Positions 448-4,703 of a DNA stretch of 42,655 nucleotides are shown here, piece by piece. Both the position numbers and the translations under genes were made by a program. Each line of letters begins with the position of its first letter. Within the stretch, counting starts at the first letter, position 1. The notes beneath the pieces are model-generated. The model saw nothing but the letters and a program-made list of their open reading frames with translations. It was not told where the DNA came from and did no database searches. The stretch comes from Candidatus Pacearchaeota archaeon (lineage in GTDB: Archaea > Nanobdellota > Nanobdellia > Pacearchaeales > GW2011-AR1), in the NCBI GenBank assembly GCA_016186375.1, contig JACPLS010000057.1, positions 1 to 42,655 of the forward strand, given 5' to 3'.

Positions 448-712
448 ATAATAGAAAATTTAGTGTCTATTTGTCTACACAAAGTGATATATTTTTTACC
501 TAGATTTTAATTACTTTTATCATACAGTAACTATAAAGGCAAATTCCTTGTTATCGTCGTGAAAGAGGTATTGACCTAAAAATATAAAGAATTTTTTATC
601 GTCGGTATTGGGAAAACAGCTTTATAGTTACATCATACAATTTGAAATAAATTAATAACTATAAAATGACACATATAAAAAGATTTAAATAGTTCAATTT
701 TTGTAAAATAAT

Positions 713-1099
713 ATGACTAACAATACAAGAATATCAACTTATGAATTGCAATGTCTGAATGGAGAATATGAAAAATTGTTAGAATGTTTAAAACATCACA
801 CTTTTTTTCAGGGAACATTAGAAAATGGAAGACCTTATTTTATAACTCCAAGTATTGATGCAAGAATTACTTTTGATGACCAAAGAGTAAGCAAATCTGA
901 AGATGGGAAAGATGTAGAGGGAAAAGTTTTAATGTATGTTGAAAGAACTTCAAGAAGAGAACCGGACTTTGTTAAATTTATTGTTAAAAGATTAGCTGGA
1001 AGAGATACCGGTAGTGGTGGATGGGGGAATCTGGCAGATATGATAGAATTATATTTGGGTAAAGATTATGGTGAGTTTAAAAGAAAGTATAATGTTTAG
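713..1099 (+). CDS. hypothetical soluble protein
   Basis: 128-aa ORF with non-repetitive composition and AT-rich TATA-like sequence upstream. No motif recognised. Confidence 0.4.
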   Translation: MTNNTRISTYELQCLNGEYEKLLECLKHHTFFQGTLENGRPYFITPSIDARITFDDQRVSKSEDGKDVEGKVLMYVERTSRREPDFVKFIVKRLAGRDTGSGGWGNLADMIELYLGKDYGEFKRKYNV

Positions 1100-1281
1100 C
1101 TGAGGTATTTTTATTTGCTAAAAAAGGTAAAAAATACAATACATTCATTTACACAAAGCAATTATATATTTTTTTACCAAACATTAAATGATTTTTTGAA
1201 TGACTGAAAAGTTAACTATATTTTATACAACTTCTATATTAATTATCCTTTTTACCTAATTTATCCGTCGATAAAACCTTT

Positions 1282-1680
1282 TCAAGTAAATTTAATTCTT
1301 TGAATTGCGATTTCCGCGCTTTCTGCAATTTCTGGCCTAGAATCCTTTAGATATTTTTGAATAAAAGGAATAAATTCTTTCTTTCCCAATGTGCCGAGAG
1401 CAAGCAATGCCTCATGAATAACAAAAATATTATTATCTGACTCAATAGCTTTTATCAAATAAGACCCAGCCAAAGCGGGATGTGCCGTCTCAACTAAAGA
1501 AAATGCACACTCATGTCTCACAATTGGAGATGGATCTGAAAGCATTGCTTTTGCTAATGCTTTAATTGATAAATCATCAATTTCTTTCTCTAAATGAAAT
1601 GCTGCTTGTATACGCTCTTCAGCACTTCATTTAATATCCAAAATAATCAATTTCCAGTCTTTATCTTCTAATTTCACCAT
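1282..1680 (-). pseudogene. HEAT-repeat protein resembling one half of deoxyhypusine hydroxylase, interrupted by an in-frame TGA at 1627-1629 (uninterrupted ORF 1282-1545)
   Basis: The frame from ATG 1680 to stop 1282 is 133 codons, and codon 18 is TGA. There are two His-Glu motifs in consecutive HEAT repeats (IVRHECAFSL and VIHEALLALG) with the His residues 33 positions apart. The SAEERIQAAFHL repeat lies between the TGA and the first downstream ATG. Confidence 0.55.
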
Positions 1681-1702
1681 ACACTTCAGCATAAAAAATA
1701 AA

Positions 1703-1816
1703 GAAGACAGCATCAGTGTTTCGCCTCTGTTGGGAGACTAACGCAACTGACATAATCTGCTTAGCTTCCGAGTTCGGAAAGGGATCGGGCGTTTCCAGAT
1801 TACTATGGCCGTCTTC
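1703..1816 (-). rRNA. 5S ribosomal RNA
   Basis: The minus strand reads GAAGACGGCCATAG...GGAAACGCCCGATCCCTTTCCGAACTCGGAAGCTAAGC...GCTGTCTTC. The terminal helix pairs GAAGACGGC with GCTGTCTTC, and the CCGAAC/GAAGCTAAG loop motifs are conserved. It is a GC-rich island in AT-rich DNA. The ends are approximate. Confidence 0.85.
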
Positions 1817-1866
1817 AATTCTATTGAAAAAGCAGAGTTTAAAAAGTTTTCTTATCTCTCTTTTTC

Positions 1867-2862
1867 ATGAATTCCAGTGCAGAATTAATAAACATCATAA
1901 AAATGTTTGCAAAAAAGAGAATTGCAGTTATCGGAGACCTGATGCTCGATAGCTATGTCTATGGAGCAATAAATAGGTTAAATCCGGAATCGGCTGCTCC
2001 TCTTATAACTCTTACAAATGAAAATCAAGACTTCCGGCTTGGAGGAGCAGGAAACACGGCAATGAATGCGTTGGCTTTAGGGGCAAAAGTTGACTTGTAT
2101 GGAGTTATTGGTAAAGACTTCAGGGGCAGAAAAATTGAAAAGATATGTAAAAAAACAGGAATTAACTTAACAAAATTATATGAAGGACAGACAATAGAAA
2201 AAAAGAGATTGATTGAAATAGCACACGGGCATTACCTTATGAGAGTTGACTCAGGAGAAACAAATCTAAGAGTAATAAGTCAAGAATCAGAGGAATTTTT
2301 TATTAAAAATCTAACGCAAAAATTAAATTTTTACGACGGTATAATTCTATCTGATTATAATAAACGTCTTTTCAAAGGCAAATTTGGTCAGAAGATAATT
2401 GATCTCTCAAACTTGCACAGAAAAATAACAGTAGTTGACCCAAAACCTATAAATGCAGAGAGATTCTTAAAAGCCAGTTTAGTTAGGCCGAACCTCTCTG
2501 AAGCTAAGGAAATTGTTGGAAAGAAAGACATTCCTTTGGTTTCTCTTGCAAAAGAATTAAAGAAAAAGATGCAAAGTAACTCAATTGTCATAACTCTTGG
2601 AAGTAAAGGTCTCGTATCATACGATAATAAATTTTTTCATTTTCCTGCAAATGTTAGGGAAGTTTCAGATGTTTCAGGAGCAGGTGATACTTTAGGTGTC
2701 ACTCTACTTTTAAGTCTTATTTCAGGAGCAAATCTTGTTCAATCTGCAAAGATAGCCAATTTTGCAGCTGGTATTGTTGTAGAAAAGCAAGGAACGTCCA
2801 CTTTAACAACAGAAGAACTTATTAATAGAATAAAATTTGAAAATATAACATGGAAACAATAA
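1867..2862 (+). CDS. hldA: pfkB-family sugar kinase, RfaE domain-I-like (D-glycero-beta-D-manno-heptose-7-phosphate kinase)
   Basis: The N-terminus IAVIGDLMLDSYVYGAINRLNPESAAPL matches the RfaE/HldE kinase signature. GGAGNTAMN and the C-terminal GAGDT anion-hole motif are present. It overlaps gmhA downstream. Confidence 0.7.
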   Translation: MNSSAELINIIKMFAKKRIAVIGDLMLDSYVYGAINRLNPESAAPLITLTNENQDFRLGGAGNTAMNALALGAKVDLYGVIGKDFRGRKIEKICKKTGINLTKLYEGQTIEKKRLIEIAHGHYLMRVDSGETNLRVISQESEEFFIKNLTQKLNFYDGIILSDYNKRLFKGKFGQKIIDLSNLHRKITVVDPKPINAERFLKASLVRPNLSEAKEIVGKKDIPLVSLAKELKKKMQSNSIVITLGSKGLVSYDNKFFHFPANVREVSDVSGAGDTLGVTLLLSLISGANLVQSAKIANFAAGIVVEKQGTSTLTTEELINRIKFENITWKQ

Positions 2863-3434
2863 TCACAAAAGACACAATAACAAGACATGTAGAAGACCTA
2901 AAAATTTTAGTTAATAAAACATCTGAGTTACATAAAGATACTATTATAAAAATCGCCGAATTAATTATTAATTCTTATAGGAATGATGGAAAAATAATTA
3001 TTTTTGGTAATGGTGGTTCTTATGCAGATTCATTACATTTTGCAGCCGAGTTAGAAGGCTGTTATAGAAATAAAAATCGTTCATCGTTAAAAGCTATGGT
3101 TCCATCTAATCCTTCAACTATAACAGCCATTAGCAATGACTTTTCTTATAAAGAAATTTTTCTTCGCTTTATTAAGGCTAATGCTGACAAGAGAGATATT
3201 GTTATTGCCCTAAGCACAAGTGGCAATTCTGAAAATGTTATCCTTGCTTTAGAAGAAGCTAAAAATCTTGGAGCAATTACAGTTGGGTTTACAGGAGAAA
3301 CAGGAGGAAAGATGAAGCTTTTCTGTGATATCTTATTTAATGTTCCGTCTCAAGACACTCCTCGTATACAGGAAATTCACCATTTCGCCTATCACGAAAT
3401 CTGTGAAATCGTCGAGAAAGAAATGTTTGGGTAA
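2850..3434 (+). CDS. gmhA: phosphoheptose isomerase (SIS domain)
   Basis: GNGGSYADSLHFAAEL, TAISNDFSYKEIF and ALSTSGNSENV are typical GmhA motifs. It overlaps the kinase gene by 13 nt. Confidence 0.8.
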   Translation: METIITKDTITRHVEDLKILVNKTSELHKDTIIKIAELIINSYRNDGKIIIFGNGGSYADSLHFAAELEGCYRNKNRSSLKAMVPSNPSTITAISNDFSYKEIFLRFIKANADKRDIVIALSTSGNSENVILALEEAKNLGAITVGFTGETGGKMKLFCDILFNVPSQDTPRIQEIHHFAYHEICEIVEKEMFG

Positions 3435-3597
3435 ATTGAACATAAATTCCCCAAATTCAAAAAAAGCCAAAGCTTTAAATCCCTATTTCTTATATAAAAT
3501 ACAAGCGGGGATGCCGGAGCGGTCAAACGGGCTACTAATATTAGTGACTATAAAGTTACAAGATAGTTTTATATTTTAATTTCAAAATTATATAAAA

Positions 3598-3975
3598 ATG
3601 TTTGTTAAAAGAAATGCTAATACTGCAGAATTAGTTGGATTAAGTTTCGGTGATGGCGGGTTAACACATCGAAGAAATAGTAAAAGGATGAAATTTCAAC
3701 TTAGAGGTGATTTAAGAGAAGAAAAAGAAAACTACGATAAAACTATTATCCCTCTATTTAATAAAGAAATAATGTTACCTATTTTTAAAAGAAAAGTAGG
3801 AATTGTATTTAGTATGAAGAAGAATTTCTATGGTTTATCTGTTGAAAGTACAAAGATTGAAAAATATCTCAATTATTTAGGTATTCCTAGTGGCGTTAAA
3901 ACAGAATTATATATACCACGATGGATAGAAAGAAATAGTCTTTTTAAAAAAATAATAAATATCACACACAAATAA
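3598..3975 (+). CDS. LAGLIDADG homing endonuclease, N-terminal half (first motif present)
   Basis: ELVGLSFGDGGL matches the LAGLIDADG motif as in I-DmoI-type archaeal enzymes (LLGLIIGDGGL, recalled). The ORF ends at TAA, 2 nt before the next ORF. Confidence 0.65.
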   Translation: MFVKRNANTAELVGLSFGDGGLTHRRNSKRMKFQLRGDLREEKENYDKTIIPLFNKEIMLPIFKRKVGIVFSMKKNFYGLSVESTKIEKYLNYLGIPSGVKTELYIPRWIERNSLFKKIINITHK

Positions 3976-3977
3976 AA

Positions 3978-4346
3978 ATGGGAATGACTTCTACATCAAA
4001 AATCTTGATTTCTGAAATATGTAGAATTTTAAAGTCTCTGAATTTTAAATTTAGAGTTAATAAAAGAAGATCTTATATTGGTAAAGACGGGATAAAACAT
4101 CAGAATTCTCATAATATTAGATTTGATGGAAGCATACAAGTTAATAAATGGTTTAAAGAAATAGGTTCAAATAGTCAAAAACATATTACCAAATATCTCG
4201 TTTGGAAGAAATTTGGTTTTTGTCCTCCAAGAACAAGATTAACAGACAGAAAGAAAATGCTTAAAAACGACCTTTCTCCTTATACTTACTATCTGCAGGA
4301 GTGCCAGAGTGGTCAAATGGAGCACGTTAAGGCCGTGCTGGCTTAG
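3978..4346 (+). pseudogene. LAGLIDADG homing endonuclease, C-terminal half lacking the second LAGLIDADG motif; reads into the nested tRNA
   Basis: SKILISEICRILKSLNFKFRV resembles the helix after motif 2 of double-motif enzymes. No second motif exists in any frame at 3925-3995. The last 17 codons are encoded by tRNA sequence from 4295 onward. Confidence 0.5.
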
Positions 4347-4378
4347 TGCCTTCCTAGGTTCGAATCCTAGCTTCTGCA
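4295..4378 (+). tRNA. complete class II tRNA, Leu-type; the anticodon reads AAG in my manual fold
   Basis: GCAGGAG TG CCA GAGTGGTCAAA TGG A GCACG TTAAGGC CGTGC T GGC TTAGT GCC TTC CTAGG TTCGAAT CCTAG CTTCTGC A. All four stems pair, with one G-U in the acceptor stem. The discriminator is A. Confidence 0.8.
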
Positions 4379-4435
4379 TGATCCCTCGTAGCTTAGTGCT
4401 TGCGGAGGTTCGAATCCTCTTCCCCGCATTATTCA

Positions 4436-4540
4436 TTTATAGACAATTCTGTTGATTGTTCCACGTTTAAACAGAATTGTCTAGACAGAGAATTCTGAAC
4501 AAAATGTAATCTAATTATCAGAATTCTCTGTATCATAAAG
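4436..4540 (+). repeat. hairpin element A, copy 1 (two tandem hairpins)
   Basis: Hairpin 1 pairs 4441-4453 with 4470-4482 (13 bp). Hairpin 2 pairs 4485-4498 with 4518-4531 (14 bp) and has a 19-nt loop, ACAAAATGTAATCTAATTA. It is homologous to 18815-18915. Confidence 0.6.
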
Positions 4541-4703
4541 TACTTCACTAACTTATTTGTAAATATATAGTATAAACGACAAGCCTTTTTTGCTTATTTT
4601 TTATCGTCGGAGAAAAAAAGGTTAGATATATCTAGGTTTTAGATAATTTTGATTATAGTAAAAATCACTTAACTTTTATTATCGAGAGGAATATTTTGTT
4701 ATT

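Follow-up and report, generated by a model that had tools for sequence, protein, structure and literature searches.

Probable disruption of an archaeal tRNA-Leu gene by an endonuclease cassette bringing a replacement tRNA

Results

The window, by which we mean the whole 42,655-nucleotide stretch of Candidatus Pacearchaeota archaeon DNA that was analysed (assembly GCA_016186375.1, contig JACPLS010000057.1), contains the two ends of one tRNA-Leu gene separated by an insert of about 850 bp, which lies within the anticodon arm of this resident tRNA-Leu(AAG) and has an endonuclease pseudogene as its sole coding sequence. The 5' relic (3505..3535, + strand) covers tRNA-Leu(AAG) positions 1 to ~30/31 and comprises the acceptor strand, the D arm, position 26 and what is left of the anticodon stem on its 5' side. 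An earlier note on this DNA, made from the letters alone, had recognised a 5' half in 3505-3531 (GCGGGGATGCCGGAGCGGTCAAACGGG), and this is borne out: the segment is acceptor strand, D arm and position 26, 27 of its 27 nucleotides match the start of the intact tRNA-Leu(AAG) genes at two other loci (L166 and L003), and the whole relic corresponds, base by base, to the 5' relic at a third (L002). The 3' relic (4386..4428, + strand), delimited by sequence reading, by L166 and L003 and by reconstruction, holds the last anticodon-stem bases (TCG), the variable arm, the T arm, the acceptor strand and A73. Its start is certain from 4389, the part that the same note had correctly assigned as a 3' half (4389-4428), and probable from 4384-4386; this half shares 93% identity with the 3' portion of the L003 tRNA. 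The acceptor strands (GCGGGGA/TCCCCGC) pair at 7/7 positions, again as previously stated, and tRNA positions ~31-37/40 are absent from the outer gene. When the outer halves were combined with the anticodon arm of L166 they were called as tRNA-Leu(AAG), whereas their direct join gave no call.

Upstream of the 5' relic, a BRE/TATA-like box of the archaeal type (AAAGCTTTAAATCC) lies at 3470..3483 (+ strand), ~23-35 nt 5' of base 1 of the resident tRNA-Leu. L166 has CTTTATAAG at the same spacing to its intact tRNA, and the window box was presumably the promoter of the outer tRNA-Leu. Just 3' of the other relic, 4440..4531 forms two perfect 14-bp hairpins (4440-4453/4470-4483 and 4485-4498/4518-4531), which could possibly be the terminator of the old outer gene. 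The outer halves are likely inert today, with the inner tRNA alone functional.

The insert begins with a spacer (3536..3597, + strand) homologous to the spacers of L002, L085, L003 and L004. Its TATA-like box, TTTTATATTTT at 3567-3577, is situated 21-31 nt 5' of the endonuclease ATG and would drive the endonuclease gene. Two LAGLIDADG-derived ORFs had been reported here (3598-3975 and 3978-4346); both exist, and they are parts of a single gene. The N-terminal part (3598..3975, + strand) carries the first motif, LVGLSFGDGGL, and the C-terminal part (3978..4294, + strand) follows in another frame with a weak Pfam Hom_end match, the second ORF as listed extending to 4346, into the inner tRNA. Pfam is nearly blind to the single ORFs (no match for the first and only E=0.013 for the second), so a search with the concatenated protein was needed, and this matched intact proteins of 254-272 aa at E=4e-102. 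A 67-nt deletion at 3949/3950 has removed the second LAGLIDADG motif and shifted the frame. The endonuclease was thus rightly described as decayed: the window copy is a dead pseudogene of the LAGLIDADG_3 (PF14528) family.

Abutting the pseudogene is a complete tRNA-Leu(AAG), the cargo tRNA (4295..4378, + strand; Rfam 48 bits), which ARAGORN calls at 4294-4379, in agreement with the nested tRNA of the earlier note. It is 81% and 90% identical to the two outer halves, which confirms that inner and outer copies are paralogous, and it is closest to the L002 tRNA (93% identity between the cargo tRNAs of the two loci), while the nearest matches of the outer halves are the L003 and L166 tRNAs. The cargo tRNA is presumed to be the working gene. 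A TATA-like box (AAAATGCTTAAAAAC) at 4254..4268 (+ strand), 27-41 nt 5' of its base 1, falls within the endonuclease codons K-M-L-K-N and is the same in the window and in L002, synonymous sites included. The right end of the cassette and the junction occupy 4379..4385 (+ strand), where TGATC (TAATC in L002) is followed by CC. No boundary (att-like) repeats were found around the insert, and the only long direct repeat is that between the inner and outer T arms.

The earlier note had failed to find an outer anticodon arm, a bulge-helix-bulge (BHB) motif or room for a group I core, and we fared no differently. ARAGORN with introns of up to 3 kb and relaxed thresholds returned the inner tRNA only. 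A scan of all junction combinations with relaxed BHB motifs (hBH/HBh' included), run with a script that recovered the true BHBs of L013 and L107, gave 9 candidates against ~20 in shuffled sequence, none of which yields a tRNA; the join made by the best of them (3552/4400) gives none either. The non-coding flanks of the ORF measure 62 nt and 0 nt, too little for a group I core, and over 3300-4700 no ribozyme or intron family appeared in Rfam at E<=10, the inner tRNA being the sole credible family. The pairing of GCTAC with GTAGC noted between the junctions does exist, but does not fit the register of the cloverleaf, in which pair 27-43 is C3532-G4388, and is best read as a coincidence. Splicing of the outer halves onto the inner anticodon arm through two introns was also considered; by eye, the junctions form none of the required central helices.

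The earlier note had also suggested a comparison with the uninterrupted locus in relatives. The window and L166 share rfaE-gmhA (72% nucleotide identity over 1557 nt), and in L166 an intact tRNA-Leu(AAG) follows gmhA at the very spot of the insert, reading GCGGGGATGCCGGAGCGGTCAAACGGG-CGACG-TTAAGGC-CGTCG-TA up to the contig end. That contig stops inside the tRNA, and the empty site is visible to position 45 only. The locus is therefore polymorphic, filled in the window and empty in L166, with just one empty site found; among the other gmhA relatives, L167 has no tRNA after gmhA and L165 ends too early. The closest relative of the insert itself is L002: its alignment with the window starts at base 1 of the tRNA in the 5' relic and runs until 5 nt beyond the cargo tRNA, and the flanks are unrelated. 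The insert, its tRNA included, thus has a full-length homologue in a cassette whose genomic surroundings are unrelated. The window sequence from 552 to 3934, with the 5' junction, was also recovered at 100% identity in an independent Logan assembly (L001).

Across the family, a same-strand tRNA is called directly after the endonuclease gene at 122 of 164 loci. The remainder, scanned with Rfam, mostly gave nothing at the gathering score, and two of them lie near 16S genes. Endonuclease clades or clusters map one to one onto the type of tRNA (Leu-AAG/GAG, Leu-CAA, Leu-UAA or Arg-UCG), and the linkage reaches down to ~30% protein identity with a precision of a few bases. In the Leu-AAG/GAG, Leu-CAA and Arg clades the TATA-like box of the tRNA is found within the last endonuclease codons and at an unchanged distance; in the Leu-UAA clade it is intergenic. 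Nineteen cassette tRNAs were compared and showed compensatory changes in 20 of 24 pairs; as judged from such comparisons, the cargo tRNAs of the family are clearly under structural selection. Distances between endonucleases correlate with those between tRNAs over positions 32-84 (rho +0.47, Mantel p=0.005), whereas rho is -0.11 for positions 1-31, where informative sites are few and two-state. The cassette is flanked by relics of its own tRNA type at L002, L085/86, L091, L133, L016 and L017 and also at L058, L139, L143, L146, L147 and L148; most cassettes have none, as for example L003 and L004, which follow rpoD.

The catalytic Asp is at least 90% conserved in both LAGLIDADG motifs (GDG and DTDG) among the homologues, whose PF14528 assignment comes from precomputed matches, and active enzymes would thus be expected to exist in the family. 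A broken endonuclease gene stands beside a good tRNA at L196, L197 and L199. A PDB sequence search with the intact homologue P0001 gave no match at E<=0.01, and viral contigs held distant relatives only (22-33% identity), with no sign of a viral vehicle. tRNA-linked endonuclease genes of this kind make up a family that is large and, apparently, undescribed.

Position 30/31 of tRNA-Leu recurs in three roles. It is where the relics end in the window, L002, L085 and L133; it is the site of mini-introns in L013, L197, L095, L093, L020 and L024; and in L107 it holds a 743-nt BHB intron of tRNA-Leu(UAA) with an intact endonuclease gene inside. L096 has two tRNA halves with an endonuclease gene between them and a 15-bp closing helix, and the scan found no BHB there. 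Judged solely from junctions and intron positions, the endonuclease target would lie near 30/31, and a cut inside tRNA-Leu positions ~28-40 is predicted.

Discussion

These observations suggest that the resident tRNA-Leu(AAG) gene of a small DPANN-type archaeon was probably broken by a selfish endonuclease cassette that brought its own replacement tRNA. This had been one of the alternatives offered by the earlier note, and the empty site of L166 and the collinearity with L002 now support it. Because the outer halves lack an anticodon arm and a BHB, and because L166 is uninterrupted at the same spot, they are best explained as relics of the resident gene. As part of this explanation we also hold, with good confidence, that the cassette consists of a promoter-bearing spacer, a LAGLIDADG gene, an abutting tRNA-Leu(AAG) and ~5 bases.

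The insert could have arisen as follows. An active ancestral endonuclease would have cut the tRNA-Leu DNA near position 30/31, and the break would have been repaired from a donor with the layout 5' relic, spacer, endonuclease gene and full tRNA. At the left end, the 5' part of the tRNA may have served as the homology arm; synthesis would then have run through the cassette, and the right end would have been joined non-homologously just past the cargo tRNA, which would explain why the 3' relic was left behind. Since the cassette presumably supplies a working tRNA-Leu, the disruption of an essential gene would be free of cost and splicing would not be needed. The endonuclease gene probably decayed afterwards, as expected once uncut targets run out. 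The locus also shows what is looked for in intronless homing, with an endonuclease gene outside any intron or intein and a presence/absence polymorphism; co-inheritance of neighbouring markers with the endonuclease gene may be read from it indirectly.

Several points count against this explanation. It seems to require a non-homologous join at the right junction. Positions 1-30, if carried by the insert, would be expected to follow the endonuclease tree and do not (rho -0.11), though with so few informative sites this test has little power. The anticodon loop of the cargo tRNA is the same as that of the target, and how the cargo might escape its own enzyme can only be guessed at, differences in the anticodon stem or mini-introns being two such guesses. 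Finally, most cassettes lack a relic, so that many copies may be long-standing residents passed on by vertical descent and not recent invaders.

The other alternative of the earlier note was a large or non-canonical intron or a multi-piece tRNA, in which the outer halves would be exons of a working tRNA with an endonuclease gene and a second tRNA inside. The complete pairing of the acceptor strands, the undecayed state of both relics, the intron-borne endonuclease gene at 30/31 in L107 and the helix-closed halves of L096 would all suit it. At this locus, however, it finds no support and is extremely improbable: there is neither an anticodon arm nor a BHB, the directly joined halves are not recognised as a tRNA, BHB-like motifs are no commoner than in shuffles, ARAGORN finds nothing when introns are allowed, the syntenic and uninterrupted L166 has the arm exactly at the insert position, and L002 has a 5' piece with no 3' piece. 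A chimeric assembly, in which two tRNA-Leu loci were fused into the nested structure, is likewise very improbable, given the independent Logan assembly across the 5' junction, the same 5' architecture in L002 from another sample and similar relics in many unrelated assemblies; these outweigh the facts that the data are metagenomic, that tRNA repeats can mis-join contigs and that L166 and L001 end near the region.

A purely local rearrangement, made up of a tandem duplication of tRNA-Leu, insertion of a free-standing endonuclease gene and deletions and involving no tRNA-bearing cassette, appears unlikely as well. It would predict a downstream relic nearly identical to the inner tRNA, as is in fact seen in L016 and L143. 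In the window, though, 10-19% of positions distinguish the inner from the outer sequences, and it is with L002 that the inner tRNA groups. The outer pieces stand on either side of the inner gene and form no tandem with it, and L002, although its genomic surroundings are different, has spacer, endonuclease gene, tRNA and 5 further bases in the same collinear arrangement. The great age of the linkage (~30% protein identity), its precision to within a few bases and the many copies in a conserved ribosomal-protein/rpoD context could instead mean that the LAGLIDADG family was domesticated, for example to act on the adjacent tRNA gene or its transcript, and that the relics are unrelated recombination accidents. 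We give this little credence in view of repeated pseudogenisation with the tRNA intact (window, L196, L197 and L199), the presence/absence at one locus (window against L166), the insertion of like into like seen in the relics, the classical mobile-intron position of L107 and the conservation of catalytic residues characteristic of active nucleases.

Returning to breakage by a cassette that carries a replacement, a broader proposal, for which we put the chances somewhat short of even, is that DPANN archaea harbour widespread "self-rescuing" LAGLIDADG homing elements. Each would be dedicated to a single essential tRNA gene (Leu-AAG/GAG, Leu-CAA, Leu-UAA or Arg-UCG) and would spread by cutting it and installing itself along with a complete replacement tRNA whose promoter lies in the last codons of the endonuclease. 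To our knowledge, homing endonucleases are thought to persist in essential genes only by means of self-splicing introns or inteins, or else between genes; the locus and its relatives point to another solution, which is to break the gene and bring a spare. If true, this would add to self-splicing introns and inteins a third harmless way for a homing endonuclease to reside in an essential gene. Intermediate forms (L107 and the mini-introns at 30/31) would connect it with BHB tRNA introns, and L096 possibly with the way split tRNAs originated. One tRNA site occurs in three states within the family, namely an endonuclease-bearing BHB intron, endonuclease-free mini-introns and an intron-free cassette, which makes ideas on the origin of archaeal tRNA introns, and on introns as protection against mobile elements, directly testable. 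The enzymes would form a natural set of nucleases with predictable tRNA-gene targets, and annotators should expect orphan tRNA halves beside such endonuclease genes.

A full-text literature search found no description of LAGLIDADG-tRNA cassettes, nor of endonuclease genes in archaeal tRNA introns; relationships to several known systems can nevertheless be drawn. The free-standing endonuclease SegB, encoded in a tRNA gene cluster of phage T4, targets a conserved motif of tRNA and, by "intronless homing", propagates its gene along with neighbouring tRNA genes (PMC2330249), and rearrangement and amplification of a tRNA region driven by a homing endonuclease is on record (PMC13096335). The window endonuclease gene resembles SegB in lying in neither intron nor intein. 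Unlike that GIY-YIG phage enzyme, it belongs to the LAGLIDADG family and to archaeal chromosomes, is joined without a gap to a single tRNA with the promoter box in coding sequence, and sits in an insert around which the target gene was left in pieces. LAGLIDADG genes are also found in archaeal BHB introns and group I introns of rRNA genes (PMC6125680, PMC2602781). With these the family shares Pfam LAGLIDADG_3, archaeal hosts including DPANN, a conserved structural RNA as target and, in L107, residence in an intron; the window insert differs in that it has no BHB or ribozyme and cannot be spliced, that a carried gene copy repairs the damage, and that the hosts are tRNA genes.

In the split and tri-split tRNAs of Nanoarchaeum equitans and Caldivirga maquilingensis, the pieces hold every position and complementary leaders form a BHB for trans-splicing. 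The separated 5' and 3' pieces of the window, with their matching acceptor strands, resemble these but have no anticodon loop and no such pairing, and a complete gene stands between them. Integrase-type elements that use tRNA genes as insertion sites bring along a duplicate of the tRNA end they displace. The insert is like them in its tRNA target, in a duplicate of the displaced part that keeps the gene working and in a partial tRNA copy at one end; it is unlike them in having no integrase or att repeats, in carrying a whole tRNA and in its size of only ~850 bp, and its presumed enzyme is a homing endonuclease that would act through break repair. Engineered Cas9 "home-and-rescue" or "cleave-and-rescue" drives in animals, finally, link a nuclease against an essential gene to a replacement copy of that gene. 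The same coupling of nuclease and replacement is found here, with the difference that resistance of the rescue copy is designed in the drives and presumed in the archaeal cassette, and the logic of such drives would seem to have evolved naturally.

Results

The sequence under study has a G+C content of about 31%, and the locus lies downstream of rfaE-like and gmhA genes. A BRE/TATA-like box, read from the sequence at 3470-3483, precedes the 5' part of a tRNA (3505-3531), whose acceptor strand, D arm and position 26 have textbook form, while a long variable arm, T arm, complementary acceptor strand and A73 stand at 4389-4428. Between these outer parts lies a complete tRNA-Leu(AAG) (4295-4378; ARAGORN and Rfam, 48 bits), the sole tRNA recognised by either program between 3505 and 4428. 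Sequence reading, ARAGORN and Rfam thus agree in every detail with the earlier note, which had described the two halves, the tRNA nested between them and the missing outer anticodon arm. Two perfect 14-bp hairpins lie immediately 3' of the outer gene (4440-4531); their arms resemble the interior of the endonuclease gene over 12-23 nt (3894-3916 with 4464-4486; 4099-4110 with 4517-4528), which may be chance in AT-rich DNA.

The two ORFs between the halves gave barely any Pfam signal separately; concatenated, they matched 90 proteins, of which the intact ones are LAGLIDADG_3 proteins of 254-272 aa (E down to 4e-102). Because the catalytic Asp of both LAGLIDADG motifs is kept in at least 90% of family members, the family looks like active nucleases. 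In the protein alignment the window copy is without 24 residues that include the second motif, and at the DNA level 67 nt are deleted at 3949/3950 compared with locus L002, which also shifts the frame. The ORFs, correctly taken earlier for decayed LAGLIDADG derivatives, are therefore one dead gene, a pseudogene. Decay also occurs elsewhere, through a nonsense codon in L196, a frameshift in L199 and an insertion of about 270 nt in L197 (~2436-2705), which has many short inverted repeats and looks like a small non-autonomous mobile element.

L002 comes from another sample and its flanking genes are unrelated to those of the window. The alignment between the two is continuous from base 1 of the 5' tRNA relic through the spacer and the endonuclease gene, intact in L002, to the tRNA, and ends 5 nt beyond it (TGATC in the window, TAATC in L002); the 3' relic is absent from L002. 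The inner tRNA and the cargo tRNA of L002 share 93% identity. Of the outer halves, the 5' one matches the tRNA of L003 at 100% and the 3' one at 93%, and the 5' half is identical to the tRNA of L166 as well. The inner gene thus came with the endonuclease gene, and the outer gene was the resident.

A comparison with relatives, as the earlier note had proposed, revealed an uninterrupted tRNA-Leu(AAG), seen to the contig end, in the syntenic L166. This contig, among the closest gmhA relatives (77-78% identity), has the rfaE-gmhA block in common with the window (72% nucleotide identity over 1557 nt), and about 100 nt past gmhA reads GCGGGGATGCCGGAGCGGTCAAACGGG CGACG TTAAGGC CGTCG TA before it ends. 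The first 27 nt of its tRNA are identical to 3505-3531, and its AAG anticodon arm is intact exactly where the window has the insert. When this arm was placed between the outer halves, ARAGORN called tRNA-Leu(AAG). Relative to L166 the break lies at about tRNA position 30/31 on the left and at 38-41 on the right, and the outer gene has lost roughly its anticodon loop. The left junction was confirmed by L001, an independent Logan contig corresponding to window 552-3934. L001 ends 15 nt short of the 67-nt deletion junction, and the end of L166 falls within its tRNA-Leu; these breaks could be due to a heterogeneous population, in which some alleles have the deletion, or the cassette, and others do not.

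Scans of genome and metagenome collections yielded 163 loci (164 with the window). A same-strand tRNA call starts about 0-260 nt from the endonuclease gene end in 122 of the 164, a count from intron-allowing ARAGORN, in which some isotype calls are wrong; in strict mode the picture was unchanged. By protein clustering, each endonuclease clade goes with one tRNA: Leu-AAG/GAG (gap 0-5 nt), Leu-CAA (1-4 nt), Leu-UAA (30-48 nt) or Arg-UCG (a few nt, or about 80 or 125 nt). One clade, cluster 9 (L066, L046, L040, L067, L053 and others), is without a tRNA call directly downstream, and within it only L040 shows a tRNA, intron-containing and about 100 nt away. Many Leu cassettes sit after rpoD in the S13-S4-S11-rpoD cluster, others in at least four other contexts.

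Many endonuclease ORFs run directly into the tRNA, which accounts for unusual C-terminal ends (AGMPERSNG and CQSGQM, for example). When the loci are aligned on tRNA base 1, a TATA-like box appears in every clade between about -35 and -26; in the Leu-AAG/GAG, Leu-CAA and Arg clades it consists of the endonuclease's own conserved codons ..K-[IM]-L-K.. (C-terminus; 4254-4268 in the window). This stretch would be dual-use, protein and predicted tRNA promoter, so that the spacing is fixed and tRNA expression would be tied to the 3' end of the endonuclease gene. Covariation marks the cargo tRNAs as real genes: in a set of 19, those beside dead endonuclease genes among them, compensatory changes are found at 20 of 24 base pairs. 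An A34 anticodon (AAG) occurs in cargo tRNA-Leu at about 20 loci (window 4295-4378, L002-L012, L085-L092, L196, L199), with a conserved (T/C)TAAGG loop and covarying stems; sister clades have GAG. Such a lineage in DPANN archaea is unusual, since archaea are said to read pyrimidine-ending codons with G34, not A34 (PMC8450103).

Each cargo tRNA was also locally aligned to its own flanks (control regions: 95th percentile score 20, 99th 28). In-register tRNA fragments recur beside cassettes, always like into like, as upstream 5' relics (L002, L085/86, L091, L133, L017, L019/L099, L058, L075, L139, L146, L147, L148) or downstream 3' relics (L016, L058, L143, L164). In the Arg locus L058, as in the window, relics enclose the cassette on both sides, and the two outer acceptor strands fit each other. 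For most cassettes there is no relic; these may be long-standing residents.

Discussion

The earlier note had offered two readings of this locus: a very large or non-canonical intron, or multi-piece tRNA, and a resident tRNA-Leu gene destroyed by a cassette that brought its own replacement. Against the former, every pair of possible splice points around both junctions was scanned for a BHB or its relaxed form, giving 9 matches versus about 20 in shuffled sequence and no tRNA from any; the same script recovered the real BHBs of L013 and L107. With introns as long as 3 kb permitted, ARAGORN found nothing beyond the inner tRNA, which with the scan upholds the noted lack of a BHB and an outer anticodon arm. 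Rfam found no ribozyme at the locus, and the halves joined directly are not a tRNA. We therefore reject the intron or multi-piece reading here. The empty site in L166 and the cassette homology with L002 support the destroyed resident gene with an imported replacement, a reading that the other loci generalise; we hold this relic-plus-cassette account of the window to be probable.

Introns do occur in related loci. In L107 (196-1076) a tRNA-Leu(UAA) has two, a 743-nt BHB intron at 30/31 (central helix 4/4 paired, closing helix 12 bp) that encloses an intact LAGLIDADG gene, and a canonical one of 54 nt at 37/38; with both removed in silico, ARAGORN calls tRNA-Leu(UAA). To our knowledge, no endonuclease gene has been described from an intron of an archaeal tRNA. 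Homologous BHB mini-introns of 22-28 nt, a hairpin followed by GCCAA/GGCCAA, lie at 30/31 of cassette-linked tRNA-Leu in L013, L197, L095, L093, L020 and L024, and may be what is left of endonuclease-bearing introns, or may shield the cargo tRNA from its own endonuclease. Position 30/31 is also where the 5' relics end in the window, L002, L085/86 and L133. Relic ends, mini-introns and the L107 intron are each taken to point independently to a homing site around 30/31. At L096 (2447-3292) a tRNA-Leu(GAG) is divided in its D loop and an endonuclease gene separates the two parts; no complete tRNA is nearby and no BHB was found. The first and last ORF codons form a 15-bp interrupted helix, and a TATA-like box precedes each tRNA part. 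The locus may hold a tRNA that is truly split, or a gene that is dead.

Starting from the observed anatomy, empty site, cassette homology, clade specificity, relics and decay, we propose a homing mechanism whose details we give an even chance. The enzyme would cut tRNA-Leu DNA near 30/31. In the L002-type layout the upstream relic would be the left homology arm and the 3' part of the cargo tRNA the right; repair would install spacer, endonuclease gene and tRNA, and the target's own 5' part would remain as a new relic. In the window the right end would have been joined just beyond the cargo tRNA instead, leaving a 3' relic too. The endonuclease gene would decay after fixation, as in the window, L196, L197 and L199. 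Anticodon-stem differences or mini-introns are possible sources of cargo tRNA self-immunity. Tracking of the endonuclease tree by tRNA positions 1-31 was not found in a poorly powered test.

In a literature search we met no account of LAGLIDADG-tRNA cassettes, of archaeal tRNA introns with an endonuclease gene, or of a gene whose broken ends enclose its replacement. We therefore class the locus with homing-endonuclease elements, as a variant, and see in it no novel type of intron or split gene. By protein family, the endonuclease stands nearest to the LAGLIDADG genes carried by introns of archaeal rRNA; Nawrocki et al. surveyed archaeal group I introns and found 39 of 39 in rRNA genes (PMC6125680). 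The closest working analogue of the tRNA-linked LAGLIDADG cassette is T4 SegB. This endonuclease is free-standing, lies in a tRNA cluster, recognises a motif in tRNA and takes adjoining tRNA genes along with it (PMC2330249).
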